Positions 3,700-33,759 are shown, counted from the first letter of the stretch. The stretch: 64,000 nucleotides of DNA from Candidatus Helarchaeota archaeon (GCA_019058315.1 JAHPZH010000001.1:599536-663535), one strand, 5' to 3'. The notes: generated by a model not told the origin, from the letters alone. Program-made: numbers and translations.

Positions 3700-3765
3700 G
3701 AACTTTGCCTCCACTTGATGGAGGGAGTAGGATTTTTTTCAAAATCTACAGCGGAGGCAAAGTTC
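3700..3765. repeat. GC-rich intergenic stem-loop
   Basis: GAACTTTGCCTCCAC ... GCGGAGGCAAAGTTC inverted repeat with inner GTAGGATTTT/AAAATCTAC, just 3' of the 704-aa gene. Confidence 0.6.
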
Positions 3766-3790
3766 TCGAAAAAATTAAGAAATTGGAGTT

Positions 3791-5999: not shown

Positions 6000-8909
6000 T
6001 TAATCTTCTAGATCCTCGACTTCTTTCAGCCATTCTTCTATTTGTTCTTCATCTAGATTAGCAAGATCTTTTAAGAGTAACTCTTTATCTTCCTGTGATA
6101 GATTTCTTAAATTTTGAACTCTGCTATAAAGATCATCTGAAATGACTTTAAATGGTTTTTTGAGCATTTTTTCAACATCCTCAAAGGAAGTTTGTTCCGG
6201 TTTAGTTTCCTCAGATTCGGCTAAGATTGTTCTTATCTCCTTTGCTCCTAATTTAACACCTATTTTACGTTTTCCTTTCATAACCTTTTTTGATTTTACT
6301 TTTGGTGAACGTCTTTTAATAATTACTGTTGTCGCTACTAATGAACTAGCTGCGATACTACCAATTATTATTATTATTATTATGGTAATATCTTCTCCTG
6401 GGGGTATTATAATAATTGGTTTAGGATTCTTTTTCACTTTAAATTCATATACACTTGAATTATTTACTTGTCCACTTGTGTCATTGGCCCAAATTTGGTA
6501 TGAAATAGTTTTTTTGCTTGCATTCAAAGGAACAAATGTAACATAACTCCAATATCCATCTAATAAAGTTCCTGAAGTTAAGTTCATTTCAAAATATTGA
6601 AAAGATCCATATAAATCTGTATAGATTAGGACTTTAGAGATGCCTTTATCGTCCGTTACTCGTGCGGTAATATTAATGATGTCAAGTGGTCTTGGTCTTT
6701 TATTATTAATTGTAACATTTTGAATAGTAGGTAATTCATCAAAAATAACTTGATATTGATAGACACTTGAACTAGTTGAATTGCCATTAGTATCATTTGC
6801 CCAAATGGTATAATTAATTGTTGTTCCAATGGGTTGTTGAGGAATTGTATAATTCCAATAACCATTTTGAGGAGTACCAGATAGAAAATCTGTAGGATAA
6901 TCTAGGAAAATTCCTGTATAATTGGTATTTATTAATACTGTGTCAACCCCCGTTTCATCAGTGATATGCGCTGTTATAGAGACCATGTCCAAATCACTAG
7001 GAATGACTGGATCTTGTGTTACCATAATTATATTTGGCGGTTGCGTATCTGGAGTTCCGTTTCTAGGACCAAGAATACCAATAGTTGGTGGATTAACTAT
7101 CATAAGATTATGGAGATTATCAACAAAACCTTGTTTTTCAGTAACATTAGTAGTTCCGGCATCTAAAAAGAACTGCCATGCTCCAAAGCTGTTAATTACT
7201 TCCCATGGATATGGAAAGGTAGGATTTCTTCCAATAGTTACAAATACATTTGCAGGGTTAGGCCAACCACATTCTCGTATTAAAATATCATCTAAGTAAG
7301 GATCCTGAGTTGTTTCCCATATAGTTATTAAGATATTAGGATCACCAGTGTCTTCTTGAAACATTTTACCTGCATCAACTGCGTTTGGATGACTTTGCCA
7401 ACTAGCACCGGTATAATCAAAAGCTTCATATTGCCAGCTGCTAGATTGATGGTAGTAAACGCCATTAAAATCAATTGTGGCCTCATCGGCTTCAGCACCC
7501 CATACAAACCAGCCCGTAACACCTGAGCCAGGGTAATTATGATACTTATAGATATATGAATTTGCATAATACTTATATACTGACCATCTAGAAGAACTAT
7601 CAACATGCCAAGATTCAACAAAAATTGGACCATCAGAAATAATTGGTTTATTTGTTATCCAACCACCAGCACCTGTATCATATGTACTGGTCTCATGATA
7701 GTCAGACCTTCCTGATAAATGCTCATTCCCATTTTTATCGAACTGCCTAAGTATATCATAATTTACACCATTATCAGTATGCATCAAGACTGAAGCCCCA
7801 TCGGTGAAATTCACTGTATAACCCGTCCTCGAGATGTCGGTATATGCTGCTGGAGCTGTTGGAGTAGAGTTATAATATATACGATAACTTTTTGTTTCAG
7901 AGCCCGTTAGATTATCTATAAATGCGATATCTGCGGATGAAACATATAATATTCTATCTTCTTGATATCCAACATCCCATGAATTGTCGATTGCAGCTAC
8001 ATAGAAAGCTTTGTTTGCTTGTGGACCCGCACTTTCAATATGAAACCGATAAACCGTGGTTTGTACATTACGAAAACCAGTATTTTCGGTGATAATAGAC
8101 CAATTTAAATTAGTATCATCCCAAAAATAAGCCGAATATTGATCTATGGAACAATCAAAATTGATTTTAAAAGTATACCATTTATTTGCTTCATATGGTA
8201 TCCCAGAATCACTATAACCTGAACTATGACCATAATAAAAGGTACCTGAACTATTGAAAGCAACTGATACAGCATATCCATTAGCACCAGTAACTGAAAT
8301 ACCATTATATGTATCTGGACTAGTTGTCATTGTTGTTATATAATATGTTCCATTGACTTGGTTTGAAAAATCATGTTGTATATAACACCAATTTGTTGAA
8401 CTGTTATCATACAATTCAACTACCTTTTTATGACCACCAAAACGAGGTAGAACCCTAACACTAGTATCTGAAAGTTCTTGTACAGTCCATCCACTTGGAT
8501 TTCCCCAATCTGTTGAAGAAGAAAAAGTTTCCCAAGCGTAAGGCTCTAAATTATAAATTTGTGAAATTAATTCGTCTCCAACACCATATGGTGCCTTATA
8601 TACTCGTAAAGAGTCTTTAAAACAGTACTTACTTTGTTCAGTAAAATTTATGGGGTCTATTATGACATCTGTTTGATTTGAGCCAGTATTTTCTGTGATA
8701 TCGAATTGTTTGAAATGTTCAAAGTCTTCAGAACCAGCTATTTCTATATCTAGATCTAGAGATGCATTAGGAACTTGGATAAATGTAAAATTAGCTGAAC
8801 CCGAATTAAGCAAAGAAACTCCAAGATATATTGAACTAAGTAATATTAGACTTGTAAGAGCTAAGAGTAATCCTTTTTTATTTATTCTATTTTTATTTTT
8901 TAATCCCAT
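6000..8909 (-). CDS. Membrane-anchored surface protein (paralog A)
   Basis: N-terminal hydrophobic signal, beta-rich N/T/S/Y/W ectodomain with WANDT Ig-like repeats, Ile-rich TM, basic plus helical cytoplasmic tail. Confidence 0.75.
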   Translation of the reverse strand: MGLKNKNRINKKGLLLALTSLILLSSIYLGVSLLNSGSANFTFIQVPNASLDLDIEIAGSEDFEHFKQFDITENTGSNQTDVIIDPINFTEQSKYCFKDSLRVYKAPYGVGDELISQIYNLEPYAWETFSSSTDWGNPSGWTVQELSDTSVRVLPRFGGHKKVVELYDNSSTNWCYIQHDFSNQVNGTYYITTMTTSPDTYNGISVTGANGYAVSVAFNSSGTFYYGHSSGYSDSGIPYEANKWYTFKINFDCSIDQYSAYFWDDTNLNWSIITENTGFRNVQTTVYRFHIESAGPQANKAFYVAAIDNSWDVGYQEDRILYVSSADIAFIDNLTGSETKSYRIYYNSTPTAPAAYTDISRTGYTVNFTDGASVLMHTDNGVNYDILRQFDKNGNEHLSGRSDYHETSTYDTGAGGWITNKPIISDGPIFVESWHVDSSSRWSVYKYYANSYIYKYHNYPGSGVTGWFVWGAEADEATIDFNGVYYHQSSSWQYEAFDYTGASWQSHPNAVDAGKMFQEDTGDPNILITIWETTQDPYLDDILIRECGWPNPANVFVTIGRNPTFPYPWEVINSFGAWQFFLDAGTTNVTEKQGFVDNLHNLMIVNPPTIGILGPRNGTPDTQPPNIIMVTQDPVIPSDLDMVSITAHITDETGVDTVLINTNYTGIFLDYPTDFLSGTPQNGYWNYTIPQQPIGTTINYTIWANDTNGNSTSSSVYQYQVIFDELPTIQNVTINNKRPRPLDIINITARVTDDKGISKVLIYTDLYGSFQYFEMNLTSGTLLDGYWSYVTFVPLNASKKTISYQIWANDTSGQVNNSSVYEFKVKKNPKPIIIIPPGEDITIIIIIIIGSIAASSLVATTVIIKRRSPKVKSKKVMKGKRKIGVKLGAKEIRTILAESEETKPEQTSFEDVEKMLKKPFKVISDDLYSRVQNLRNLSQEDKELLLKDLANLDEEQIEEWLKEVEDLED

Positions 8910-23130: not shown

Positions 23131-23189
23131 TGGTGGATAGGGGAGGATTCGAACCTCCAACCGCTCGGTTAACAGCCGAGTCCTATACC
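23131..23189 (-). pseudogene. 3' fragment of tRNA-Asn (att-like direct repeat)
   Basis: 59 bp with 2 mismatches to 27969-28027; lacks the 5' acceptor strand. Confidence 0.9.
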
Positions 23190-23209: not shown

Positions 23210-26200
23210 ATGATTAGATGGAAATTCCAAAGGAGAAAAAACTCTATGAATAGAAATAAACTCTCATATTTTGGTAAAATTCAATTTTTTATAATTTTAA
23301 TATTTATTCTTTCTATGTTTTCATCCATATCTTATCTTTGGTCGCCTTGGAGCTATAAAATGAACCCAAGATCTCATATTGGTGATCAGGTGTTATTTAA
23401 ATCCGATTATTATGGCTATGGTAACGAAATAATAATGATTGAGGATCCTGATGCAGACGTTACTCCTGGTCCTTTTAATGATATAATCATAGTTTTTATA
23501 AATAGCAGTTCCGATCCAGCTGGATTATTCGTAACTGGCGATGAATTCGATCCTGGAGTATTTGTTGTCACGATTGGATTCACTGATGGTCCTACCGTTG
23601 GAACATTTCTCCATGTTGAAGATGGTGATTTAATTATGGTCATATATAAAGGAGAGGTGTATGCATCTGATATTTGGCATAAAACATACACAGCTATAAT
23701 CCCAAAACCCCCAATGGAAGATGAATATCATGGTTTATCTTCTTATCATGTATTAAAAATTCTGGATCCAGACATGGACATTACAAACATTACAGAAACT
23801 TTTATCCCTGATAATTTAACCGCTAAAATTGATAGCACAAGCGATCCAATTGGAATTACAGCAACATTCATTGAACTTTTCCCAACTGATGGGGAATTTT
23901 ACTTTGTATTTTCATTCACTAATGGATCTACTTATGATGATTATCTCCACGTAGAAGATGGAGATACGATTAGTTTAACATATTACGATGAACATAATTA
24001 TCAAGGAGATAGTGTTTATCTCGAAGCAAATGCCACTTGGCACAAAACTTATACCGGAACAATTAATGTAAGTGTAACTGGGTCTGTATCTGCGGGTTTA
24101 GATGCTGTTGCTGAAGTAACAATTAATGATAAAGATTTAGATATAAATCCTCTAGTTCTTGATAATTATTCTTTGCCATTTAGTCCCCTCGAGGTCCATA
24201 CTCAAGGAAATAGTTCCAATCTAATTAAAATCCCTCTAAATGAAACTGGACCATCAACTGGGATATTCAAAGGAGTTTTTAATTTAACATTAGGTCCGAC
24301 AAATCAAGATATTCCTTCCCTTCACGTATATGATGGTGCAATTATAATATATACGTATTATGATGCACGAGATATGTATGGTGATTCGGTAAATTTATCT
24401 AAACAAGAACAATTCTTTTTACATCAAAATGGTGTTTTCATAATCGATGATCTTGAATATTTTGGAGATCCAGTTACTGTAAATGTAACAATTAAAGATA
24501 AAGATTTAAACCAACTTCCGACTGTTCAAGAAACTGCAACAATTAATGCATCAAGTAGTCCTTCGGATCTAATTAGTATTACTATCTACGAAAATGGTAC
24601 AAATAGTGATAAATTCATAGGTCAATTTGACATAGGCTCCCTTGTTACATCCGATCCTGATGACTATTTACATGCAAATACAGGAGAAAATATAACAATT
24701 ATATATTTTGATGAAAAAGATATAAATGGTACATCCCAAACGAGAATTGTTAACATAACTTGGTATGAATTTCCAGAGCCCCCATCAATAAAAGTGGTAG
24801 GACTAGTAAATAATTCCATAATCTGGTCTGGGACTCTACTTAATTTCAATGTCTCTGATAATTGGTTAATAGATTCTATTTGGTATAGAGTTAATTTTGG
24901 TCCTAATATTACAATTGATACTTCTATTGGTGTTCATAATTTTTCATTCGTAATAAATGCTACAATAGAAGATCCCTACTGGATTTATGGTTTAAATTAT
25001 ATTGACATTTTTGCTAATGACTCTTTAGGTTTCGAAACTATGAGTAGATTTATACTTACTCTTGATGACACTCTTATTAGAATTAGACCACTTAATCAAA
25101 CAAATATTGTGCCAGATGCAGACGGTAATATCCTTATTGAATGGAACTCTTCGCCAGCTTGGAATCCTATTAGCTTTGATATTTACCGCAGTACCACCCT
25201 TGGATTTACCCCCAATGCAACAAACCAAATAGCACAGGGAATAAGTGATATATACTATTTAGATAATGGAACTGTTGATGGTCTTCATTATTATACAATT
25301 ATCGGTTTTAATGGGACTAATAACTCAACTTATTGGGAATATAGTTCGATATTGATTATCGATATAACTCCACCTAGTTGGGTTTTACCTCCAACTTTTA
25401 CCAGTACTCCAGTTGGTACAGAAAACGCTCGACTTGCCTGGACTAACTCGTTTGACTCTTATGATATAGCTGGATTTTCAATCTATCGAGCTAATGTTGA
25501 TAATTTTACCCAAAGTGTGCGGATTGCCAACCTGACCGAATTAACTTATCTGGACACTAGTTTAAATGCGACAATTTATTATTATTGGATAACAGCATAT
25601 GATGAGAAAGGACAAGAAAGCGGACCATCATTTTCTAGAAGTGTTATCCTACCTGGATTTGACGACGGGGATATCAGTTGTAATAAAGGAGAATACTTTG
25701 GTGATGGGGTCATCGTCTATGTGAATATTACTGATTTGGATTTAAATCAAAACGATTTAACCATTCAGAACGTCACAGTAACTGCAAATACCTCAACATA
25801 TTCAATTAATTTTACCTGTCTAGAATTAGGTCCTAATAGTGATACTTTTGTAGGTAATTTTTCGTTAGTAACTACTGGTACTAATGATTCAACAGATGAG
25901 TTGAACATTACACCTGGAAGTACTATCACAATTTTTTATTTAGATGAAAAGAATAGCGCTGGGTATCCAATATATAGATCTGTTACGATATTTTGGATCG
26001 ACGATCCCCAACCCCCAATTATAGAATTGGACGCCCCTGCAAATAGTTCTATTGTTTGGAGTTGGGATACACTTTATTTCACTGTAAGAGATAATGTACG
26101 GGTAGATTCTGTTTGGTATAGAGTTAATGATGGTATTAATGTAACAGTTGCTACTGATATACAATTCGATGAATATTCATTTGGAATCCTTGTTAATTTA

Positions 26201-27937
26201 TCAGCTCCCGATTGGATTTATGGTTTTAATTATATTGATATTTTTGCTAATGACACTATGGGTATGGAAAATACTAGTAGATTTTCATTTATTATTGATG
26301 ATACCCTTATTAGAATTAGACCGCTTAATTTAACAAATATTGAGCCAGATGCAGACGGTAATATCCTCATTGAATGGAACTCTTCGCCAGCTTGGAATCC
26401 TATTAGCTTTGATATTTACCGCAGTACAATCCCTGGATTCATTCCCAATGCAACAAACCGAATAGCACAAGCGATACCTTGGTCAACTAATTATTATATA
26501 GATAATGGAACTGACGATGGTCTTCACTATTATACAATTATTGGATTTAATGGGACTCATAATTCAACTTGCTGGGAATATGGTTCAATATTAGTTAACG
26601 ATATTACTCCACCGATTCCACCCCAAGATATTAATGCTACTCCAGTTGGTACAAGTGGTGTTCGTCTCATCTGGACTGCCCCGCCAGCCTATTATGATGT
26701 GGTTGGATATTCAATCTACCGAGCTACTATAGATGATTTTGCCCAAAGTGTGTGGATTGCCAACGTGACCGAATTGACACATTTAGACACAGGTTTAAGT
26801 AGTGGACTTTATTTTTATTGGATAACAGCATATGACGAGAAAGGACAAGAAAGCGGACCATCATCACCGGAATTTGTTATATTACCTGGACCAGAAGATG
26901 GTCATATTGAAACTGATAGAGCAGGGTACTTTGGGGAAAATGTTACCGTTTATGTAACCATTACAGATCTAGACTTAAACCAAGATGATTTATCAGTTCA
27001 GGATGTTACTATAAACGTTTCAACTGGTTTTGAATTAATTTATGTAAATCTTTTTGAGTCCGGTTGTAATAATAATACTTTTTTTGGGAATTTTACCTTA
27101 GTTACTTACATTACAAACGATACTCTTGATTACATAAATGTTACTGACGGAGCTATTATTACCATTTCATATCTTGATGAAACGAACAGCCTTGATATTC
27201 CTGAATTATTTCATATTAATATTACTTGGAACTTGATCTCCCAAGCCCCAATAATAAATCTGATAAGCCCGGAGAATGAAACCACAGTTCAAAAACCTAA
27301 CTTAATTGATTTGAATATTTATGATCCAAACTTGGATCTTTCCACTGTGGAATGGAGGGCAAACACAACACAGCTTACTTGGACAAATTCGTTTATTGGG
27401 TCCTATGATATTGATCTATCGAGTTTTGCTAGTGACCAAACTGTGCAATTTTGGGTTAGAGCGAATGATACTGCAGATAATCAGAATTTAATAACTTTTG
27501 TTTTAACTTTTGATGATATTCCTCCAACCAAACCATCGAATATGACAGCAGTAATTCAAAAAGGTAATATTACAATCTCATGGAATACATCTTCAGATGT
27601 TCATATAGTTTATTATCATATTTGGCGACATAGTAAAAAAGAAAGTAAATATTTAGGAAATATCACATCCACTTTTTATACAGATCTCGAGAGTTTAAAA
27701 CCGGGAAAATATACTTATGAAATAATTCCATTTGATGAAGCAAATAATACAGGAGAATCTATAACCATTACTGTAAAAATCAGAGGAAAAGAAACTTATT
27801 ATCCATTCTTGGAACCACTTGATAATCAAGTGACTATTATAATAATAGCAATTTTAGGATCGATAGCTATGGTGATAGGTATTGCTGTATTATTAATGAG
27901 AAAAAAATTTATTTCAGCAAAAAACCATAGTAAATAA
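23210..27937 (+). CDS. Large membrane-anchored surface protein with Ig-like/FN3 repeats
   Basis: Repeated I.D.DLN domains, internal duplication (DGNILIEWNSSPAWNPISFDIYRST twice), FN3 motif YYYWITAYD, C-terminal TM. Confidence 0.8.
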   Translation: MIRWKFQRRKNSMNRNKLSYFGKIQFFIILIFILSMFSSISYLWSPWSYKMNPRSHIGDQVLFKSDYYGYGNEIIMIEDPDADVTPGPFNDIIIVFINSSSDPAGLFVTGDEFDPGVFVVTIGFTDGPTVGTFLHVEDGDLIMVIYKGEVYASDIWHKTYTAIIPKPPMEDEYHGLSSYHVLKILDPDMDITNITETFIPDNLTAKIDSTSDPIGITATFIELFPTDGEFYFVFSFTNGSTYDDYLHVEDGDTISLTYYDEHNYQGDSVYLEANATWHKTYTGTINVSVTGSVSAGLDAVAEVTINDKDLDINPLVLDNYSLPFSPLEVHTQGNSSNLIKIPLNETGPSTGIFKGVFNLTLGPTNQDIPSLHVYDGAIIIYTYYDARDMYGDSVNLSKQEQFFLHQNGVFIIDDLEYFGDPVTVNVTIKDKDLNQLPTVQETATINASSSPSDLISITIYENGTNSDKFIGQFDIGSLVTSDPDDYLHANTGENITIIYFDEKDINGTSQTRIVNITWYEFPEPPSIKVVGLVNNSIIWSGTLLNFNVSDNWLIDSIWYRVNFGPNITIDTSIGVHNFSFVINATIEDPYWIYGLNYIDIFANDSLGFETMSRFILTLDDTLIRIRPLNQTNIVPDADGNILIEWNSSPAWNPISFDIYRSTTLGFTPNATNQIAQGISDIYYLDNGTVDGLHYYTIIGFNGTNNSTYWEYSSILIIDITPPSWVLPPTFTSTPVGTENARLAWTNSFDSYDIAGFSIYRANVDNFTQSVRIANLTELTYLDTSLNATIYYYWITAYDEKGQESGPSFSRSVILPGFDDGDISCNKGEYFGDGVIVYVNITDLDLNQNDLTIQNVTVTANTSTYSINFTCLELGPNSDTFVGNFSLVTTGTNDSTDELNITPGSTITIFYLDEKNSAGYPIYRSVTIFWIDDPQPPIIELDAPANSSIVWSWDTLYFTVRDNVRVDSVWYRVNDGINVTVATDIQFDEYSFGILVNLSAPDWIYGFNYIDIFANDTMGMENTSRFSFIIDDTLIRIRPLNLTNIEPDADGNILIEWNSSPAWNPISFDIYRSTIPGFIPNATNRIAQAIPWSTNYYIDNGTDDGLHYYTIIGFNGTHNSTCWEYGSILVNDITPPIPPQDINATPVGTSGVRLIWTAPPAYYDVVGYSIYRATIDDFAQSVWIANVTELTHLDTGLSSGLYFYWITAYDEKGQESGPSSPEFVILPGPEDGHIETDRAGYFGENVTVYVTITDLDLNQDDLSVQDVTINVSTGFELIYVNLFESGCNNNTFFGNFTLVTYITNDTLDYINVTDGAIITISYLDETNSLDIPELFHINITWNLISQAPIINLISPENETTVQKPNLIDLNIYDPNLDLSTVEWRANTTQLTWTNSFIGSYDIDLSSFASDQTVQFWVRANDTADNQNLITFVLTFDDIPPTKPSNMTAVIQKGNITISWNTSSDVHIVYYHIWRHSKKESKYLGNITSTFYTDLESLKPGKYTYEIIPFDEANNTGESITITVKIRGKETYYPFLEPLDNQVTIIIIAILGSIAMVIGIAVLLMRKKFISAKNHSK

Positions 27938-27968
27938 GTAAAGCTAATAAAATAACAATAATTTAAAA

Positions 27969-28045
27969 TGGCGGATAGGGGAGGATTCGAACCTCCAACC
28001 GCTCGGTTAACAGCCGAGTGCTATACCTGATTAAGCCACCTACCC
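27969..28045 (-). tRNA. tRNA-Asn(GTT), CCA encoded
   Basis: Cloverleaf; CTCGG-CT-GTT-AA-CCGAG; G73. Confidence 0.95.
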
Positions 28046-28052
28046 ATTTTAA

Positions 28053-28127
28053 TGGGATGGAGATCGGGAATTGAACCCGAGTCTATTGAGCCACAATCAA
28101 TTATTCTACCATTAAACTATCTCCACC
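28053..28127 (-). tRNA. tRNA-His(GTG), G-1 and CCA encoded
   Basis: ATTGA-TT-GTG-GC-TCAAT; G-1:C73. Confidence 0.95.
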
Positions 28128-28133
28128 AAAATT

Positions 28134-28243
28134 TGGTGCGGATGGGGAGATTTGAACTCCCGTTTTTAGATTTCAGCAGTTTTTGGCGTTCTAGTCCAAA
28201 TAATTTGGAAGTCTAAATGTCTAAACCTCTAACGTACATCCGC
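28134..28243 (-). tRNA. tRNA-Gly(TCC) with intron carrying an alternative GCC anticodon
   Basis: TTAGA-CT-TCC-A, 34-nt intron (28172-28205), A-TCTAA; GCC cassette at 28185-28187. Confidence 0.9.
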
Positions 28244-28250
28244 AAAAAAA

Positions 28251-28613
28251 TTAGAGAATTAAGGCAGGCACTGTAATAAATTGCACTGGATTTCTCTTGT
28301 TATACTTTCTATGACATTCCCAACACCATGTAATATTGTTTGTTAATGTTTCAACTTTATAAGCTGAACCGTTACACTTTCCAATAATATGGTGTCGTGT
28401 CAAGTAATTGTTTGGGTCTAGTTTATTTTGTTTTACACCGCATTTCTGACAGGTAAATTTATCTCTATTGTAGATAAATAACCGGAGCTTTAGTTGAAAT
28501 CGCCCGCAGTGTGGACATTGAATGTAACCGATAACTTCTTTATTGAATTGTTTGCATTGTTTGTATTCTTTTTTCAGACCTTTTATTGTTTTTTTACAAT
28601 AAATACACTTAAA
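28251..28613 (-). pseudogene. HNH endonuclease frame with N-terminal Zn-ribbon; start codon missing
   Basis: 120 open codons: FKCIYCK...CPHCG...RDKFTCQKCG...LTRHHII...NNITWCWECHRKYN. GAGGTGA SD upstream, but an in-frame TGA precedes the frame. Confidence 0.8.
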
Positions 28614-28641
28614 TCACACATCACCTCTTTTTGTTTGTTGA

Positions 28642-28713
28642 TCCGACTGTGCGGATTTGAACCACAATATCACAGATCTACAGTCTGCTGCCGTACCAGT
28701 TGGCTACAGTCGG
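28642..28713 (-). tRNA. tRNA-Tyr(GTA)
   Basis: C1-G72, A73, short variable loop (archaeal type); GCAGA-CT-GTA-GA-TCTGT. Confidence 0.95.
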
Positions 28714-28793
28714 TATTTTAATAAAGATGGGTAGGGTCTAATTCAAAAAAAATAAAAGGGATTGATGGTAAGTCTAATTATATTAAGATATTT

Positions 28794-28910
28794 TTAATCA
28801 ACTTCCTTAGACATCGGACTTAATACAACCTCTACGACTTTTTCAACAACTTTCATTTCTTCTGCTTCTTTTTCCGTCAAATATGCATAATAACCCATAT
28901 ATTGTTGCAA
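28794..28910 (-). CDS. Putative 38-aa microprotein
   Basis: GGAGGTGA SD, then TTG: MQQYMGYYAYLTEKEAEEMKVVEKVVEVVLSPMSKEVD*. Confidence 0.45.
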   Translation of the reverse strand: MQQYMGYYAYLTEKEAEEMKVVEKVVEVVLSPMSKEVD

Positions 28911-28970
28911 AATTCTTCACCTCCAATTTTTTTTTAAGATAATTTCTAGCTTCAATTGGGTTTTGTAAAG

Positions 28971-29041
28971 TTGCACAGACAGGAATCGAACCTGCTTGCA
29001 ACTCGTTGTAAGCGAGTCAACGATCCAACCGTCCCTGTGCA
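28971..29041 (-). tRNA. Atypical tRNA-Val(TAC)-like gene
   Basis: 7-bp acceptor TGCACAG/CTGTGCA, canonical T arm, loop CT-TAC-AA; but G8, a 5-nt D loop and a 6-bp anticodon stem. Confidence 0.65.
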
Positions 29042-29046
29042 AATGA

Positions 29047-29121
29047 TGGAATCGGTGGGATTTGAACCCACATAAACTTGATCTTCAGTCAAGCGGACTC
29101 GCCGGATTATCCTACGATTCC
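29047..29121 (-). tRNA. tRNA-Phe(GAA)
   Basis: CTTGA-CT-GAA-GA-TCAAG. Confidence 0.95.
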
Positions 29122-29123
29122 AA

Positions 29124-29209
29124 TGGTGGGGTTACTAGGATTTGAACCTAGATCACCAGATTTCTCCACATTTGGAGTCTGGAAGTCTCCCGGATTAACG
29201 TATAACCCC
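29124..29209 (-). tRNA. tRNA-Trp(CCA) with 10-nt intron at 37/38
   Basis: CCAGA-CT-CCA-A-[ATGTGGAGAA]-A-TCTGG; CTCC/GGAG helix. Confidence 0.92.
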
Positions 29210-29211
29210 AT

Positions 29212-29327
29212 TGGTACTCCCGCTCGGGTTCGAACCGAGGTCAATGGGTTTCTCCCATATTCAGATTATGTTTGATCTGAATCAGACCAAAGCCCATCAT
29301 GCTTGGCCAAAGCTACACCACGGGAGT
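29212..29327 (-). tRNA. tRNA-Gln(TTG) with intron carrying an alternative CTG anticodon
   Basis: A1-U72; 37-nt intron 29250-29286; T-CTG-A cassette at 29261-29265. Confidence 0.92.
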
Positions 29328-29331
29328 ATTA

Positions 29332-29482
29332 TGGCGGTAGGGGAGAGATTTGAACTCTCGCTCCCCGTGGGGAAGTAGATTTCTGGTAAAGTGAAATCTC
29401 AACTCGAGGGTAGGCTACTAAGCCGTTCCATTCTCACTGCTTCAATAGCAGTCTACCGTCGTAACCACTTGACTACCCTACC
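29332..29482 (-). tRNA. tRNA-Ser(GCT) with intron carrying CGA, GGA and TGA anticodons
   Basis: Long variable arm, G73; 65-nt intron 29381-29445. Confidence 0.92.
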
Positions 29483-29490
29483 GCTGATTG

Positions 29491-29607
29491 TGGCGGACTT
29501 GGGGAGATTTGAACTCCCAATCTACGGGTTTCTCCACGATTAAGTTCGGGTTACCCCAAAGCTTGAGATAAAAGCCCGTTGCCGTAACCTGGTTTGGCCA
29601 CAAGTCC
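29491..29607 (-). tRNA. tRNA-Lys(TTT) with intron carrying an alternative CTT anticodon
   Basis: 39-nt intron 29530-29568; CTT at 29542-29544 preceded by CCCG-AA. Confidence 0.92.
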
Positions 29608-29611
29608 GCTT

Positions 29612-29824
29612 TGGCGGGATTGCGGGGAATTGAACCCCGACCTTATGATTTCTGTACTACGGTCGCTTTCCTCCTTTTTCAAAGTCTTATTCTAAACCCT
29701 GCCATGGATAAGTCAACTGAACCCCTATTAAGGAAATTTAATCATTTTTGAGGTGAAATTAATAATTATCAAAAAGGGGCCGTAGTTAGACAGTCATAAA
29801 TCATAGCCATTAGACCACAATCCC
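29612..29824 (-). tRNA. tRNA-Asp(GTC) with 138-nt intron
   Basis: Strict BHB (CTGT/ACAG helix, ACTACGG/CCGTAGT outer stem); intron 29650-29787; G73, CCA. Confidence 0.88.
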
Positions 29825-29882
29825 ATTATTCCTCTTCGACTTCAGCCCTAATCTTAAATTAAAAAATGGGGATAATTTGTTA

Positions 29883-29929
29883 GGGGGCAATAATTAGACA
29901 GTCATTAATAACTATTGAACCACAATCCC
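29883..29929 (-). pseudogene. Degenerate copy of the tRNA-Asp 5' half plus intron start
   Basis: GGGATTGTGGTTCAATAGTTATTAATGACTGTCTAATTATTGCCCCC versus GGGATTGTGGTCTAATGGCTATGATTTATGACTGTCTAACTACGGCCCC. Confidence 0.75.
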
Positions 29930-29963
29930 CGTAAGATGTTGTTGGCTGAGTATACAACTATCT

Positions 29964-30028
29964 GGCTTCAGTACGAGAGGAACAATTTCACATTGTTTGT
30001 TTCTGACAAGAGGAACTTCATCATAGCC
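29964..30028 (-). ncRNA. Box C/D guide sRNA complementary to the 23S sarcin-ricin loop
   Basis: GGCT-ATGATGA-AGTTCCTCTTGT-CAGA-...ATGTGA...-GTTCCTCTCGTA-CTGA-AGCC: terminal stem, perfect C and D boxes, both guides antisense to (U)ACGAGAGGAAC. Confidence 0.85.
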
Positions 30029-30158
30029 TTGGGAATTATAGTTTGGATAACGACTTATATCCAAGCCCCTGCTATTTCGTTCTCTCATTTTCATTACCAA
30101 TTGCTACACCTCTTACTTTAATTGATTGTATACAATAGATTGTTTTCATCTGATAAAC

Positions 30159-30195
30159 TAATGATAGTGGCAGTAGGATTTGAACCTACAATCTT
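30159..30195 (-). pseudogene. 3' fragment of initiator tRNA-Met (direct repeat)
   Basis: 37 bp with 1 mismatch to 31002-31038. Confidence 0.9.
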
Positions 30196-30214
30196 ACAGG
30201 CTATTTGCAAAGAA

Positions 30215-30874
30215 TTAGATATTCTCTATTATGTATTTGGTCATTCCTTTTAAGATATATAACTCCTTTGTACTATCAATTCTCAATTTGCATACCCCAT
30301 TATAACTTCTACCGATTCCTCTAGAGCCATGCTTTTTTATGTAAGGTTTTGTAAACTGATTCTTTGGAATATTAAGTATTATTGACCAATAAGAAATCAT
30401 TTTTTCAATTTCATGATAAGAATGTAGATGAAGATGAATCTTAATAGAATTTTTATCGATTTTAAGAACATCTAAAAGAAATCTAAGAAAAATTTCAATT
30501 AATTTTGGGTCGGAATTACTAAATTCTATTCTATGATCACTAGATGTAGTCCCTTCGCTCTGATATAATGTTGTTCCTATTATCATTAGGTCTGACCAAT
30601 TTTCTTTTGCAATTTTCTGCCCTTCCTTATAATATAGTTTTCTTCGTTGTTTTGCTAGTTCCTTCATTTTGTGATGCCCTTTTTCTAGAATAGATTGAGA
30701 TTTCTTCTTCAGTCTATCTTTTTGTTCATTTGTTAAAATTATATCTCTTGTCCAGTTCGCAACTGTTCCCTTCGGTATTCCCATTTGTGAAGATATTTCT
30801 CCAAAAGAATACCCCTTTTTACGCAACCTCCTAGCTTTTCTCTTAATTTTTTCTTTATAACTTCTATACTTCAA
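30215..30874 (-). CDS. HTH plus LAGLIDADG-like (homing-endonuclease-fold) protein
   Basis: N-terminal HTH (LRKKGYSFGEISSQMGIPKGTVANW); GTTLYQSEG followed by IEFSNSDPKLIEIFLRFL. Confidence 0.7.
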   Translation of the reverse strand: MKYRSYKEKIKRKARRLRKKGYSFGEISSQMGIPKGTVANWTRDIILTNEQKDRLKKKSQSILEKGHHKMKELAKQRRKLYYKEGQKIAKENWSDLMIIGTTLYQSEGTTSSDHRIEFSNSDPKLIEIFLRFLLDVLKIDKNSIKIHLHLHSYHEIEKMISYWSIILNIPKNQFTKPYIKKHGSRGIGRSYNGVCKLRIDSTKELYILKGMTKYIIENI

Positions 30875-31007
30875 TGAACATCACTCTTATATCTCCATAG
30901 CCCAATAATGGCAGTTCAATTGTTTTGTTTCATATTCATATATAAACTCAACAAATTCTCCTGACTATCAAGTGAAATTTTCGTAGAGACGGGAAATTCA
31001 ATAATGA

Positions 31008-31101
31008 TAGTGGCAGTAGGATTCGAACCTACAATCTTTGGGTATCTCAATAGATTATTATTTATGAGCCCAACGAGATCTCCTGATTACTCCATGCCAC
31101 T
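31008..31101 (-). tRNA. Initiator tRNA-Met(CAT) with 19-nt intron
   Basis: A1-U72, three G-C pairs closing the anticodon stem; intron 31044-31062 with CTCA/TGAG helix. Confidence 0.92.
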
Positions 31102-31102
31102 A

Positions 31103-31241
31103 TGGTAGAGAGGAGGGGGATCGAACCCCTGCTCTTCAGTTGTCTAAAATTGTTTTGTTACAAAGACAACCATATAAGATTCGTCTTTGTATGACATTAC
31201 ATCATATCAGACTGACGCCTGAACCACTCGGCTACCTCTCT
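31103..31241 (-). tRNA. tRNA-Ile(GAT) with 63-nt intron
   Basis: TCAGT-CT-GAT-A, intron 31142-31204, A-ACTGA. Confidence 0.9.
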
Positions 31242-31243
31242 AT

Positions 31244-31351
31244 TGGTGCTGACCGGGGGAATCGAACCCCCGTCAACGGATGTCTTCATGTAAATTCGAG
31301 ATTGCGTTTCAATCGAAAGTCCGCTATACTTGTCCGCTATACTAGGCCAGC
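31244..31351 (-). tRNA. tRNA-Glu(TTC) with intron carrying an alternative CTC anticodon
   Basis: 32-nt intron 31282-31313; T-CTC-G at 31297-31301. Confidence 0.92.
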
Positions 31352-31355
31352 ACGG

Positions 31356-31492
31356 TGGAGGGCTAGGAGGGATTTGAACCCTCAACATCTCACTATCTCT
31401 GGCTAACTTACGCTACAGATACATTCCGCATAAGGAAGAGCATGTCTTCTGCATACTAGGCGAGCGCTCTAGACCATTGGAGCTACTAACCC
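31356..31492 (-). tRNA. tRNA-Thr: AGT in place, TGT after removing a 33/34 intron
   Basis: U73, CCA; BHB TCGC/GCGG-AA|TGT-A defines introns 31424-31457 and 31395-31419. Confidence 0.8.
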
Positions 31493-31578
31493 TATTTTTC
31501 CAATGCAAATGGTTCTTAAACCATACTATTTTTTAAAACTTCTTTTCATCAACTCCGTTTTTTTTATTTTAAATATGT

Positions 31579-31656
31579 TGGTGGACTCGCCGAGCTTCGA
31601 TCTCGGAGCCTCCTACTTGCAAAACAGGCGTTCTACCATTTTCGAACTACGAGTCC
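31579..31656 (-). tRNA. tRNA-Ala(TGC), atypical (A3-U70, A54)
   Basis: CCTGT-TT-TGC-AA-GTAGG; acceptor GGACTCG/CGAGTCC; T loop ATCGAAG. Confidence 0.85.
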
Positions 31657-31665
31657 ATTTTTCTA

Positions 31666-31738
31666 TGGGCAAGAGAGGATTCGAACCTCTGTGGGTTGGT
31701 CTGCATCCAACTGCATGACCTAATTCTGCCACTTACCC
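31666..31738 (-). tRNA. Atypical second tRNA-Cys(GCA)
   Basis: GTTGG-AT-GCA-GA-CCAAC; A32, A73, no encoded CCA. Confidence 0.7.
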
Positions 31739-31762
31739 ACTATTAAACAAATGTAATTTTGA

Positions 31763-31839
31763 TGGAGGATAAGACAGGATTTGAACCTGTGTGAAATTGG
31801 GTTGCAGCCAATCGCCTACGCCAACTCAGCCACTTATCC
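31763..31839 (-). tRNA. tRNA-Cys(GCA)
   Basis: ATTGG-CT-GCA-AC-CCAAT; U73, CCA. Confidence 0.95.
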
Positions 31840-31843
31840 TTAA

Positions 31844-32020
31844 TGGTGCAGGAGGAGGGATTTGAACCCTCGGTCTCAAGATTTCTTCTAGTATTAGGAT
31901 TCTGTTCGGATTCCGTTATTCGAATACTGTACTATTCGCATTCTGTTATTAGAATTCCAGATCGATGAGGATAACCTCAAAAAATTGTCTTGTAGTTTAT
32001 CCATACTAGCGTACTCCTGC
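31844..32020 (-). tRNA. tRNA-Arg with five tandem anticodon cassettes (TCT, GCG, TCG, CCG, CCT)
   Basis: A20 in D loop; stem CAAGA/TCTTG; on the + strand the insert reads Arg codons AGG 31896, CGG 31907, CGA 31921, CGC 31937 and AGA 31951, each in a tt-NNN-at context. Confidence 0.88.
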
Positions 32021-32021
32021 A

Positions 32022-32100
32022 TGGTGGGATCGGCAAGATTTGAACTTGCGATTGCTTGATCCCAAATCAAGAGTCCTAAACCATACTAGACCACGATCCC
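32022..32100 (-). tRNA. tRNA-Pro(TGG)
   Basis: CTTGA-TT-TGG-GA-TCAAG; CCA. Confidence 0.95.
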
Positions 32101-32110
32101 CAGTATAAAG

Positions 32111-32248
32111 TGGAAGGAAGGGGTTTCGAACCCCTGAACTCCTACGAGATTAGATTTCTCACAGACCTTGAGTGTCGTTCTTAGTATCGTTCTTGACCGA
32201 TAATAAATATCTTAAGTCTAACGCCTTTGACCACTTGGCTATCCTTCC
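32111..32248 (-). tRNA. tRNA-Leu(TAA) with 55-nt intron containing CAA/TAA repeats
   Basis: Long variable arm, A73; intron 32156-32210. Confidence 0.9.
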
Positions 32249-32505
32249 AATATATAGTGTAAAATTGGAAATATTGATAGAATTTAATAGAAATCTAGTT
32301 AGTATAAGAAGAAGTAGAAATTTTTTCGGATGTATTTTTTAATGTTCACCAAGAATGTCACTGAAACAACGATTCAATAATCCAATGAATTAATAGGTAA
32401 ACCGTTCGGCATAACCACTACCACGGTTGAGCCTCCATGTAGACGACTGTTGTTTCATCTTTTTTAACACATCCTTATAAAGTAATAAAAAAAAATCAAA
32501 CATAG

Positions 32506-32513
32506 TATTTAAA
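32506..32513 (-). promoter_or_regulatory. Candidate TATA box for the tRNA array
   Basis: TTTAAATA upstream of the first array gene; weak evidence in AT-rich DNA. Confidence 0.3.
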
Positions 32514-32688
32514 CTTATGGAAAATTACTGTAATGAATAAAAAAAATGAAAAATATTATCCCAATTCATTATAAATTAGTGAAATTACATTTAGGGTCAA
32601 ATTCTAATTATGATTTGTACAAGTTATTATTTAATTAAATTAAACTATTTAAATAAAAATTTCAGAATTTAATTAAGGAAGGTAAAAA

Positions 32689-33759
32689 TTGGATTTTTTA
32701 TTATTAATTTTAATATTAATTCAAATTATAATTCTGGGAATTTTGACTATATTTTTAACAAGATTATATATAATAACGAGATACTTGCCAATTATTTCCT
32801 TGATACTTTTTTCTGGTTTATTTTTAATAAATTATACATTTTTTATTCCAATTTCATGGCTTAATGAGTTCGAATTTGAAATGGCAAAATTTATTCTGGA
32901 TTTAACTTCATATTTAACATTCATTTCATTTCCATTTTTAATTTTATTTGTTGAAGGGATAAAAGGACGTCCATTTTCTCCAATATTTATTTCATACTTA
33001 TCATTAAATGCATTTACTATAGGCTATGCAACAGGATCCCGCTGGTATTACATATATCAAGGTTCTTGGATCCAGCTATACACTTTTGATCTCGATCTTC
33101 TGTCAACTATACTTTTGTCTTATTTGTTTCTAATCGTATTTTTAAGATTATTTCAATTTATATTGGATAAAAGTAGTGGTAGACCAAAAAAAATGGCAAT
33201 TATCGTAATTTTTGGACTTTTATTCGCGATAATAGGTGGTTCTTTCTCTTTATCTTCTAATATTATGTATTTTTCATTGGTAAATGTATTAATCGGAACA
33301 TCAATTACCTCCTTTGCATATTTAAAAGAACCCAATAGTTTCTTTTTATCGAATACTAATATAAAAGCTATTATGCTAATCAATAATAAAACAAAAGTAA
33401 CATATCTTACTATGAGTTTAAGTGAAGATGATAAACTAGTTATAGCAGCATCAGGAATAGGGGGTATTATGAGCTTTCTTCAAGAAATATTAGATGTAAA
33501 AAATCCTCCACTTGATCTTATCCATAAAGACTCGGGGTTCTTATTAGAGCATAATTATGAAAATGAAGTATCAGCCATTCTAATTCTTGATAAAATTGAT
33601 TATTTACTTCGATCTCCTCTCAAACATGCACTCTCATTATTTATTAAAAAGTATAAAATGGAATTAGATGGATGGAATGGACATTTAGAACCCTTTAAAA
33701 ACTTTAAAGAAGATCTCCAAAAAATTTTCAAATTTGCTTTACCCGTTTCAAAAGAATAG
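32689..33759 (+). CDS. Polytopic membrane protein with C-terminal longin-like domain
   Basis: About 7 hydrophobic segments, then SGIGGIMSFLQEI...F.KKY..ELDGWNG.L.PF..F. Confidence 0.6.
   Translation: MDFLLLILILIQIIILGILTIFLTRLYIITRYLPIISLILFSGLFLINYTFFIPISWLNEFEFEMAKFILDLTSYLTFISFPFLILFVEGIKGRPFSPIFISYLSLNAFTIGYATGSRWYYIYQGSWIQLYTFDLDLLSTILLSYLFLIVFLRLFQFILDKSSGRPKKMAIIVIFGLLFAIIGGSFSLSSNIMYFSLVNVLIGTSITSFAYLKEPNSFFLSNTNIKAIMLINNKTKVTYLTMSLSEDDKLVIAASGIGGIMSFLQEILDVKNPPLDLIHKDSGFLLEHNYENEVSAILILDKIDYLLRSPLKHALSLFIKKYKMELDGWNGHLEPFKNFKEDLQKIFKFALPVSKE

Follow-up and report, generated by a model that had tools for sequence, protein, structure and literature searches.

Synonymous anticodon cassettes in the inserts of a dense archaeal tRNA array and their candidate explanation by alternative bulge-helix-bulge splicing

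A dense array of transfer RNA (tRNA) genes was analysed in a 64-kb window of the genome of a Candidatus Helarchaeota archaeon (G000:C3:599536-663535). The window is the whole stretch of DNA studied, and coordinates given without a contig are positions in it. An earlier sequence-only reading had proposed that the introns of the Gly, Gln, Ser, Lys, Glu, Thr and Arg genes of this array hide synonymous anticodons behind a second bulge-helix-bulge (BHB) motif. Extra synonymous anticodons, referred to here as cassettes, were confirmed in the inserts of all these genes, and they were also found in Ile (UAU) and Leu. The cassette array is thus a confirmed observation. Alternative BHB splicing, by which one gene would give several isoacceptors, was judged to be the best explanation of the cassettes, with a confidence slightly better than even.

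The array occupies the minus strand within an archaeal genome of 5.8 Mb and 30% GC. Most of its genes encode CCA, and the spacers are 4-10 nt long. The genes of the NNY two-codon families (Asn, His, Tyr, Phe and Cys) are intronless, and the Pro, Ala and Val genes have a U34 anticodon only and no intron. All the remaining families, Trp and initiator Met (iMet) excepted, have added anticodon-like units in an insert between tRNA positions 31 and 39. The array and its intron-containing genes are listed below; H denotes the helix between the two bulges of a BHB.

27972-32248 (4.3 kb), minus strand: tRNA array of about 22 tRNA genes covering 20 of 20 amino acids (Rfam RF00005, ARAGORN and direct reading)
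32111-32248, minus strand: tRNA-Leu, primary anticodon UAA at 32212-32214; cassettes CAA at 32193-32195, UAA at 32181-32183 and CAA at 32168-32170
31847-32020, minus strand: tRNA-Arg body with a leader hairpin and five 7-nt loop cassettes (direct reading)
31896-31953, minus strand: the Arg cassettes UCU (31951-31953), GCG (31937-31939), UCG (31921-31923), CCG (31907-31909) and CCU (31896-31898)
31359-31492, minus strand: tRNA-Thr, first triplet AGU at 31455-31457; cassettes UGU at 31421-31423 and 31415-31417 and CGU at 31410-31412
31247-31351, minus strand: tRNA-Glu, UUC at 31315-31317 and cassette CUC at 31298-31300; alternative H GCGG/ACGC (3/4)
31106-31241, minus strand: tRNA-Ile, GAU at 31206-31208 and an invariant CUUAUAU loop copy (UAU at 31174-31176)
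31008-31101, minus strand: initiator-type tRNA-Met with A1:U72 and a simple, cassette-free 19-nt 37/38 intron
29615-29824, minus strand: tRNA-Asp (GUC) with a 138-nt intron; no synonymous cassette needed
29494-29607, minus strand: tRNA-Lys, UUU at 29570-29572 and CUU at 29542-29544
29335-29482, minus strand: tRNA-Ser, GCU at 29447-29449 and GGA (29427-29429), CGA (29404-29406) and UGA (29399-29401)
29216-29327, minus strand: tRNA-Gln, UUG at 29288-29290 and CUG at 29262-29264
29127-29209, minus strand: tRNA-Trp with a 10-nt mini-intron (CTCC/GGAG)
28137-28243, minus strand: tRNA-Gly, UCC at 28207-28209 and GCC at 28185-28187; alternative H TTAG/CTAG

Four further arrays were found by BLAST against relatives and by a search with the HNH protein encoded in the array. 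The G003 array (contigs C53 and C5; a JGI metagenome contig carries it too) comes from a genome of the same order as the window genome, and the G006 array (contig C270) from the same order and another family. L034 is a metagenome-assembled genome to which NCBI gives the name Candidatus Helarchaeota; on the UbiX/UbiD side it is syntenic with the window. The L036 array is a Logan contig. The tRNA bodies of G003 and G006 were 75-80% identical to those of the window.

The cassette sets coincided with the synonymous sets of archaea (Arg, 5/5 in each of the five arrays; Ser, 4/4, counting GCU; Lys, Glu, Gln and Ile, 2/2). In Arg, a valid loop after C32 was absent, and the full archaeal set was represented by five AU-NNN-AA units, which stood in identical order in 5/5 arrays with spacers of varying length. 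Ser GGA, CGA and UGA were retained in four arrays. In the L036 Leu gene, CAA comes first and UAA is a cassette, the reverse of the window; the cassette set was thus kept and its order was not. In alignments of the window, G003 and G006 copies, 42 of 42 alternative-anticodon columns were invariant, against 173 of 357 (48%) other insert-interior columns (Fisher P = 7e-13). The islands of conservation consisted of a pseudo-stem, two bases and a cassette.

The number of cassettes was compared with that in dinucleotide-preserving shuffles of the window inserts, the cassettes having been chosen by eye on the window copy beforehand. Extra own-family anticodons in a U-NNN-R context numbered 13, compared with 3.99 ± 1.63 in the shuffles, and 0 of 20000 shuffles reached 13. 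In an NNN-R context, there were 17 against 9.96 (P = 3e-4). Permutation of the amino-acid labels among nine inserts gave P = 2e-4.

Splice outcomes were searched for under a path rule calibrated on the 10-nt Trp intron, in which the cut falls between the second and third base of each 3-nt bulge. A BHB was accepted if H was paired 4/4 with a flanking helix of at least 3 bp, or 3/4 with a flanking helix of at least 4 bp; up to three successive excisions were allowed, and the product had to be a 7-nt loop with U33 and R37. Under this rule, 7 extra synonymous anticodons were reached, compared with 0.62 ± 0.76 (maximum 3) in 200 shuffles of the insert interiors. The 4 non-synonymous anticodons reached were at chance level (4.07 ± 2.38 in 200 shuffles). 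The comparison with shuffled introns, named by the sequence-only reading as its own test, therefore came out in its favour, synonymous outcomes being enriched about 11-fold. Six 37/38 introns of host tRNA genes, used as controls, gave their own anticodon only, with no second one reachable. The claim that single-anticodon genes lack the design also held: Trp and iMet reached only their own anticodon, and Asp had no synonymous cassette. A "loose" BHB rule reached many non-synonymous anticodons and was dropped for inference.

The predicted splice signals agreed with the proposed second BHB-like motifs at 32/33 or 33/34. In Lys, the alternative BHB at 33/34 consists of CGGG.CT^T with CCCG.AA^CTTAA (^, predicted cut), in which the stem CGGG (28-31) pairs 4/4 with an intronic CCCG located two bases before CUU (bulges CU^U and AA^C), with a 9-bp inner helix. 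Excision of the predicted 28-nt intron would leave an 11-nt 37/38 intron whose GGAG pairs with CUCU; in the single-intron route, the same GGAG would pair with CUUU. Both the shorter 37/38 intron left behind (11 nt in Lys and Gln) and the pairing of the terminal tetramer GGAG with CTTT and CTCT had been noted in the earlier reading and were found again. The alternative BHB of Gln lies at 32/33 (H ATGG/ACAT, 8-bp inner helix, followed by an 11-nt 37/38 intron), as does that of Ser CGA (H GTAG/CTAC, 8-bp inner helix). The extra introns of Glu and Gly are also predicted at 32/33 and that of Thr at 33/34 (TCGC.CT^A with GCGG.AA^TGT). In Leu, a BHB at 35/36 (GACT.TA^A with GGTC.AA^G) would change N36 to G and give a predicted UAG (CAG in L036), adding the CUN box; it was found again in L034, G003 and L036 with differing inner helices. 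In these predicted non-37/38 introns, H was paired 3-4/4, inner helices were 3-9 bp, and the structures were kept in 3-5 arrays. The canonical 37/38 BHB had H of 3-4/4 and a 5-7 bp anticodon stem in Leu, Glu, Ile, Lys, Ser, Gln, Trp and iMet; strict hBHBh' motifs were limited to three canonical introns (Leu, Ile and iMet).

From these signals, the following mechanism may be proposed. Each multi-anticodon gene would have one constant 3' splice acceptor and one to five cassettes between positions 31 and 39. In fold A, the normal anticodon stem would form, positions 32-35 would pair with the terminal intron tetramer, and excision of the 37/38 intron would keep the first anticodon. In fold B, bases 27-30 or 28-31, on the 5' side of the anticodon stem, would pair with an intronic copy of the 3' strand located two bases before a cassette, and a strong inner hairpin would bury the first anticodon. 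After the endonuclease had cut at 32/33 or 33/34 (35/36 in Leu), the ligase would connect the downstream cassette with the 5' exon, and excision of a short canonical 37/38 intron would follow. The same terminal tetramer could serve fold B because any N34 would be tolerated. One gene would thereby give two to five isoacceptors in a ratio set by RNA folding. We infer that both, or all, of these products would be made in cells.

The alternative H helices followed the 5' anticodon stem lineage by lineage, and covaried with it in Gln, Glu, Lys, Ser and Gly. Across lineages, H read ATGG/CCAT, TCGG/CCGA and GCGG/CCGA in Gln, GTAG/CTAC and GCAG/CTGC in Ser, and TTAG/CTAG, GTAG/CTAT, CCAG/CTGG and GCAG/CTGC in Gly; in Glu, the pair 27:Hb4 varied as GC, AU, CG and UA. 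Fold B of Gln was 94.8% paired, with 4 pairs changed on both sides and a covariation of 0.40, which was reached by 2 of 500 shuffles and compared with at most 0.13 in slid controls. Fold A of Gln was 100% paired, with a covariation of 0.44 (reached by 1 of 500 shuffles). Since both folds of Gln covary, it may be concluded that two mutually exclusive folds have been maintained. The covariation of fold B was reached by 0 of 500 shuffles in Glu and by 14 of 500 in Lys. Inner helices were kept under changed sequence (9 bp in Lys of both the window and G003; GATA/TATC, GATTT/AAATC and GACGAA/TTTGTC in Leu). The helix rows of Glu and Gly in the window and of Ser in L034 were read by hand. The helices of the Ser arm and the Arg leader were out of register in MAFFT alignments, and the helix table was used for them.

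Folding of the isolated anticodon arms in both conformations, which the earlier reading had suggested as a check, gave close predicted stabilities, with folds A and B 0-5 kcal/mol apart. Fold B was the predicted minimum-energy fold in G003 Lys, G006 Gln and G003 Gly.

In Arg, the terminal tetramer GAAG pairs with C32-U33-N34-C35 in every cassette. Each cassette is preceded by an NYRG tetramer and two bases, and NYRG can pair with an invariant CUGG before cassette 1, which is also able to pair, 3/4, with CAAG (27-30). Thr has the same two-role pseudo-stem. In these two genes, the pseudo-stem would also pair with acceptor tetramers further downstream, by which cassettes would be skipped. It is in the splice route of Arg that the model is least certain. 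In Thr, the first triplet (AGU) is a poor match for the terminal tetramer and probably belongs to an intron. The scheme of a first anticodon followed by a second one, as originally put forward, must be amended for Arg, which has no first anticodon at all, and for Thr.

A34 triplets were observed where G34 was expected, namely in Thr of the window and of L034 (AGU) and in L036 Ser (ACU, 5217-5292), Gly (ACC, 6332-6434) and Pro (AGG, 2853-2963). They would be either intronic or real A34, possibly inosine, the latter being unusual for archaea.

The enzymes assumed by this mechanism have counterparts in the genome. Two genes with an EndA domain (PF01974) were found, encoding proteins of 184 amino acids (aa; C12:5422-5676) and 201 aa (C1:331438-331698). 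The former was closest to crenarchaeal catalytic alpha subunits (3P1Z_B, E = 4e-45; also 3AJV_B, 2CV8 and 2ZYZ_B), and the latter to the enzymes of M. kandleri and M. jannaschii. From the two paralogues, a two-subunit EndA of crenarchaeal type is the candidate splicing endonuclease. Cutting of non-canonical introns has been reported only for (alpha-beta)2 and epsilon2 EndA (PMC5829648). RtcB is encoded at C5:272272-273576.

Taken together, the alternative-fold reading stood as far as it described an array-wide, non-random pattern that is conserved in five arrays and in which both folds covary. Several observations weigh against it. No convincing BHB path under the rule used was found for Ile UAU, Ser GGA, Ser UGA or Leu CAA, and three-step paths to Arg cassettes 2-5 were found in G003 only and in none of the window, L034, L036 and G006 copies. 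Many alternative H helices are just 3/4 paired, and a G30.A mismatch recurs. Some predicted products are odd: Gly GCC would have C33 in the window (cut AA^C) and L034, and position 37 is C in the Glu CUC cassette of G003 and U in the Gly cassettes of G006. On long inserts, the relaxed BHB rule is prone to noise; nine chance outcomes came from the 145-nt Asp insert. In the chance tests, the cassettes had been picked on the same copy that was shuffled, and the five arrays are related and are not independent samples. In the G003 Ile gene (L013:10858-10993), the first anticodon is GAC (Val) on an Ile-type body, with the UAU cassette intact. The array tRNA with UGC ("Ala") has A3:U70 and not G3:U70 in four arrays (window 31582-31656, L034:4062-4135, L036:3234-3308 and L013:9387-9475); alanyl-tRNA synthetase normally needs the G3:U70 pair. 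Finally, the host already has a full tRNA set, and the benefit of the array is thus in doubt.

The strongest competing explanation is that these are ordinary multi-intron tRNA genes with one product each, in which one anticodon is real and the rest are intron structure or duplication relics; for Lys, Gln and Glu, the real anticodon would be the downstream C34 form, to which the upstream BHB, itself well formed, would lead. Archaeal tRNA genes with several introns, at 32/33 and similar positions, have been described (PMC4033280, PMC4090602). In Lys, Gln and Ser, the upstream BHB has an inner helix of 5-9 bp and is better formed than the single-intron fold, which has none. The intronic appearance of the Thr AGU and the drift of the first G003 Ile triplet to GAC would also be expected if only one anticodon were used. 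This explanation is nevertheless considered unlikely. It leaves unexplained the five Arg cassettes in five arrays and the four Ser cassettes in four arrays, all invariant and each a different required anticodon. Positions 34-36 of the first anticodon of Gln, Glu and Lys are unchanging although their pairing partners change, and fold A covaries. Moreover, the terminal tetramer is compatible with every cassette, and L036 keeps both CAA and UAA of Leu despite the swapped order.

It is rather improbable that the cassettes have a non-decoding role, in which the introns would display anticodon-loop mimics as decoys for anticodon nucleases or modification enzymes or would yield regulatory small RNAs. 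The UAU copy of Ile, which is the loop of an 8-bp intron hairpin, does resemble an anticodon arm. Phage tRNA sets are thought to counter tRNA-targeting defences, and the homing endonuclease genes in the array and the phage-like neighbours in L036 would fit defence or counter-defence. However, a decoy needs neither a pseudo-3'-stem covarying with the exon 5' stem exactly two bases before each cassette nor a terminal tetramer that pairs with every joined cassette, and neither a nuclease gene nor a defence gene was recognised next to the array.

A decaying mobile remnant, or DNA-level spare parts swapped by recombination or slippage at short repeated flanks with no choice at the RNA level, would suit the flanks that differ among genomes, the inserted open reading frames (ORFs) and tRNA fragments, the variant gene orders in other sediments, the Ala-like tRNA without G3:U70 and a second Cys gene with A73 and no CCA, but it is very improbable given that cloverleaf pairing and most identity elements are kept across copies 75-80% identical, that conservation is concentrated on cassettes and splice helices, and that no contig joint deleting a single cassette was seen in four DNA runs, contigs being apt to drop rare variants.

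The array, with about 22 genes in 4.3 kb, is additional to a host tRNA set that is dispersed elsewhere in the genome. The host tRNA bodies have a GC content of 0.58, compared with 0.50 in the array, are 62-79% identical to the array copies, and in many cases have D-arm introns. The host has a separate gene for each anticodon (Ser UGA, CGA, GGA and GCU; Ala CGC, UGC and GGC; Val CAC, GAC and UAC; Gly GCC and UCC; Pro UGG and GGG), and the array is thus a second, additional set. The suggestion that the system compresses the genome fails, since the alternative isoacceptors have their own genes elsewhere; therefore, any compression is a property of the array alone. The statement that the array has one gene per amino acid is partly correct: all 20 amino acids are covered, Cys occurs twice and elongator Met is absent.

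The distribution of the array is patchy. Among genomes of the order, 3 of 7 had the five-cassette Arg gene, and it was found in 0 of 393 other genomes sampled from the phylum. The genes flanking the array are different in G003 and G006, and L034 is syntenic with the window. ORFs of HNH and LAGLIDADG-type endonucleases occur within the arrays, the LAGLIDADG/endonuclease ORF of L036 being at another array position, and the L036 array adjoins a phage-like tRNA nucleotidyltransferase gene and a topoisomerase-like gene. Because of this patchy distribution, the differing flanks, the endonuclease ORFs and the phage-like neighbours in L036, the array is probably an accessory, mobile unit. We would infer a viral origin only tentatively, and viral contigs scanned for the Arg cassette string gave no match. 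Matches to this string in L024 and L025 (a bacterial coding region) and in L028 (a coding region) were attributed to chance. In contigs from another sediment (run X6), Phe was joined directly to Ser (29121/29331) and Ser to Thr (29478/31356); therefore, related arrays with other gene contents or orders exist. Positions 30120-30983 were uncovered in four other DNA runs, and nothing was drawn from this gap.

A broader proposal may be put forward, with a confidence a little short of even: a mobile element or virus of Helarchaeota-like Asgard archaea would carry the array as a portable, compressed kit for decoding, in which a polycistronic array of about 20 genes would supply up to about 40 anticodons through bistable pre-tRNA folds and alternative BHB splicing, and RNA folding would set, and might tune, the isoacceptor ratio.

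The order of the array is Leu, Pro, Arg, Cys, Cys, Ala, Thr, Glu, Ile and iMet; a 219-aa ORF with a duplicated iMet 3' half, a C/D small RNA and an Asp 5' fragment; and Asp, Lys, Ser, Gln, Trp, Phe, Val, Tyr, an HNH ORF, Gly, His and Asn. Two of the features within it contain ORFs.

28254-28613, minus strand: HNH homing-endonuclease-like ORF (PHROGs HNH, E = 4e-8; Pfam HNH just below the cut-off)
30165-31007, minus strand: insertion adjoining iMet, comprising the 219-aa ORF (30215-30874) and, after it, a second copy of the 3' half of tRNA-iMet (about 30165-30200)

The HNH ORF is kept in other arrays, with homologues 69-96% identical and a G003 copy 48% identical. The stretch 30165-31007 looks like an insertion beside iMet; its 219-aa ORF had weak PHROG matches only and no Pfam family. 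Upstream of the Asp gene, a duplicated 5' half of tRNA-Asp was observed at 29840-29940. At 29964-30029 on the minus strand, a box C/D-like small RNA was recognised, with a terminal stem GGCT/AGCC, C box ATGATGA, D' box CAGA and D box CTGA; Rfam gave no match for it. Both of its guides are complementary to the sarcin-ricin-loop sequence AGUACGAGAGGAAC, whose only other genome copy is at C5:105777 (minus strand), in a stretch reading like 23S rRNA. A 55-nt copy of the 3' part of the array tRNA-Asn, 98% identical, was found at 23135-23189, 4.8 kb past the array end. Together with the array, it brackets a 1575-aa fn3/Ig-like ORF (23210-27937) in an att-site-like pattern; no integrase was seen.

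The identity elements of the array tRNAs mostly match the assigned amino acids (His G-1:C73, Tyr C1:G72, iMet A1:U72 and Cys U73), and the Ser and Leu tRNAs have long arms, as their identity predicts. The second gene with a GCA anticodon ("Cys", 31666-31738) has A73, an A32 loop and no CCA, compared with U73 and CCA in the first Cys gene, and its identity is doubtful. The host Ala tRNAs have G3:U70. The G003 gene with UGC also holds a short intron with CU-CGC-GU. An extra AT-rich T-loop intron was found in L034 Arg (3754-3963) and L036 Leu (2660-2850), and the window copies are without it. The L036 Pro gene (2853-2963) has two complete anticodon arms, CTTGG-CTAGGGT-TCAAG and CTTGG-CTTGGAA-CCAAG, derived from a 12-nt direct repeat; judged by its sequence, this would be a different layout of the two-anticodon idea.

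The expectation that standard finders would report only the first anticodon was not borne out. ARAGORN missed Arg and Gln and called Ser "Glu", Lys "Ser" and Leu "SeC"; its intron-allowed anticodon calls were inconsistent and were not used. Standard finders thus miscall or miss nearly half of the array genes, and if the cassettes are used, tRNA censuses undercount decoding capacity and the rule of "one tRNA gene, one anticodon" fails. If the proposed splicing is real, alternative splicing would extend to tRNAs, in the archaeal lineage closest to eukaryotes, and a mobile element would carry a complete decoder in 4 kb. The array also offers RNA switches that are short (about 50 nt) and well defined, two folds being conserved in each.

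Bacterial and large-phage tRNA arrays likewise consist of at least 20 densely packed tRNA genes with interspersed homing endonucleases, patchy distribution and encoded CCA. In those arrays, each anticodon has a separate gene and introns are at most of group I, whereas the present array is archaeal and has BHB introns. No Rfam intron family matched at E ≤ 1 over 27000-33500, and the inserts are 10-138 nt long, compared with at least about 200 nt for a self-splicing group I ribozyme. A BHB or a relaxed hBH/HBh' motif was found at both exon-intron junctions, and the predicted non-37/38 introns each have their own BHB. The array resembles the multi-intron genes of Thermoproteales and ARMAN (PMC4033280, PMC4090602, PMC3239211) and the intron-rich tRNAs of Asgard archaea (bioRxiv 10.64898/2026.10.13.758758) in having introns at 32/33, 33/34 and 37/38. 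It also shares with them the relaxed hBH/HBh' motifs, which in the known genes go with a two-subunit or broad-specificity EndA. However, each described multi-intron gene gives one mature tRNA, whereas the array inserts hold further synonymous anticodons. Cis-encoded alternative anticodons were not found in the literature searched, including the 2026 preprint on Asgard tRNA introns (bioRxiv 10.64898/2026.10.13.758758). The present analysis adds the array-wide pattern, the complete Arg and Ser sets, the shuffle-tested splice outcomes and the covariation of both folds.

Split tRNA genes provide the nearest functional parallel. In the array, each gene has all its pieces side by side on a single strand, within 105-210 nt. 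As described in a later article, the split tRNA-Glu of Nanoarchaeum equitans (UUC/CUC) combines one constant half with two alternative halves (Randau et al. 2005, via PMC4390854). There, scattered half genes are joined by trans-splicing, whereas the array has intron-embedded cassettes. According to the accounts available for the tri-split tRNA-Gly of Caldivirga maquilingensis (Fujishima et al. 2009, via PMC4390854 and PMC4033280), synonymous isoacceptors are likewise made from constant pieces by exchange of a short anticodon piece, with joining by BHB, splicing endonuclease and ligase. As portrayed there, the Caldivirga pieces are separate genes that act in trans, with one transcript per anticodon piece, whereas the array has cassettes in cis, among which the choice would be made by predicted folding. 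By the same accounts, the array also differs in having up to five cassettes per gene and at least 9 genes sharing the design. The cis design of the array links to the trans-spliced tri-split tRNAs and bears on the evolution of fragmented tRNA genes.

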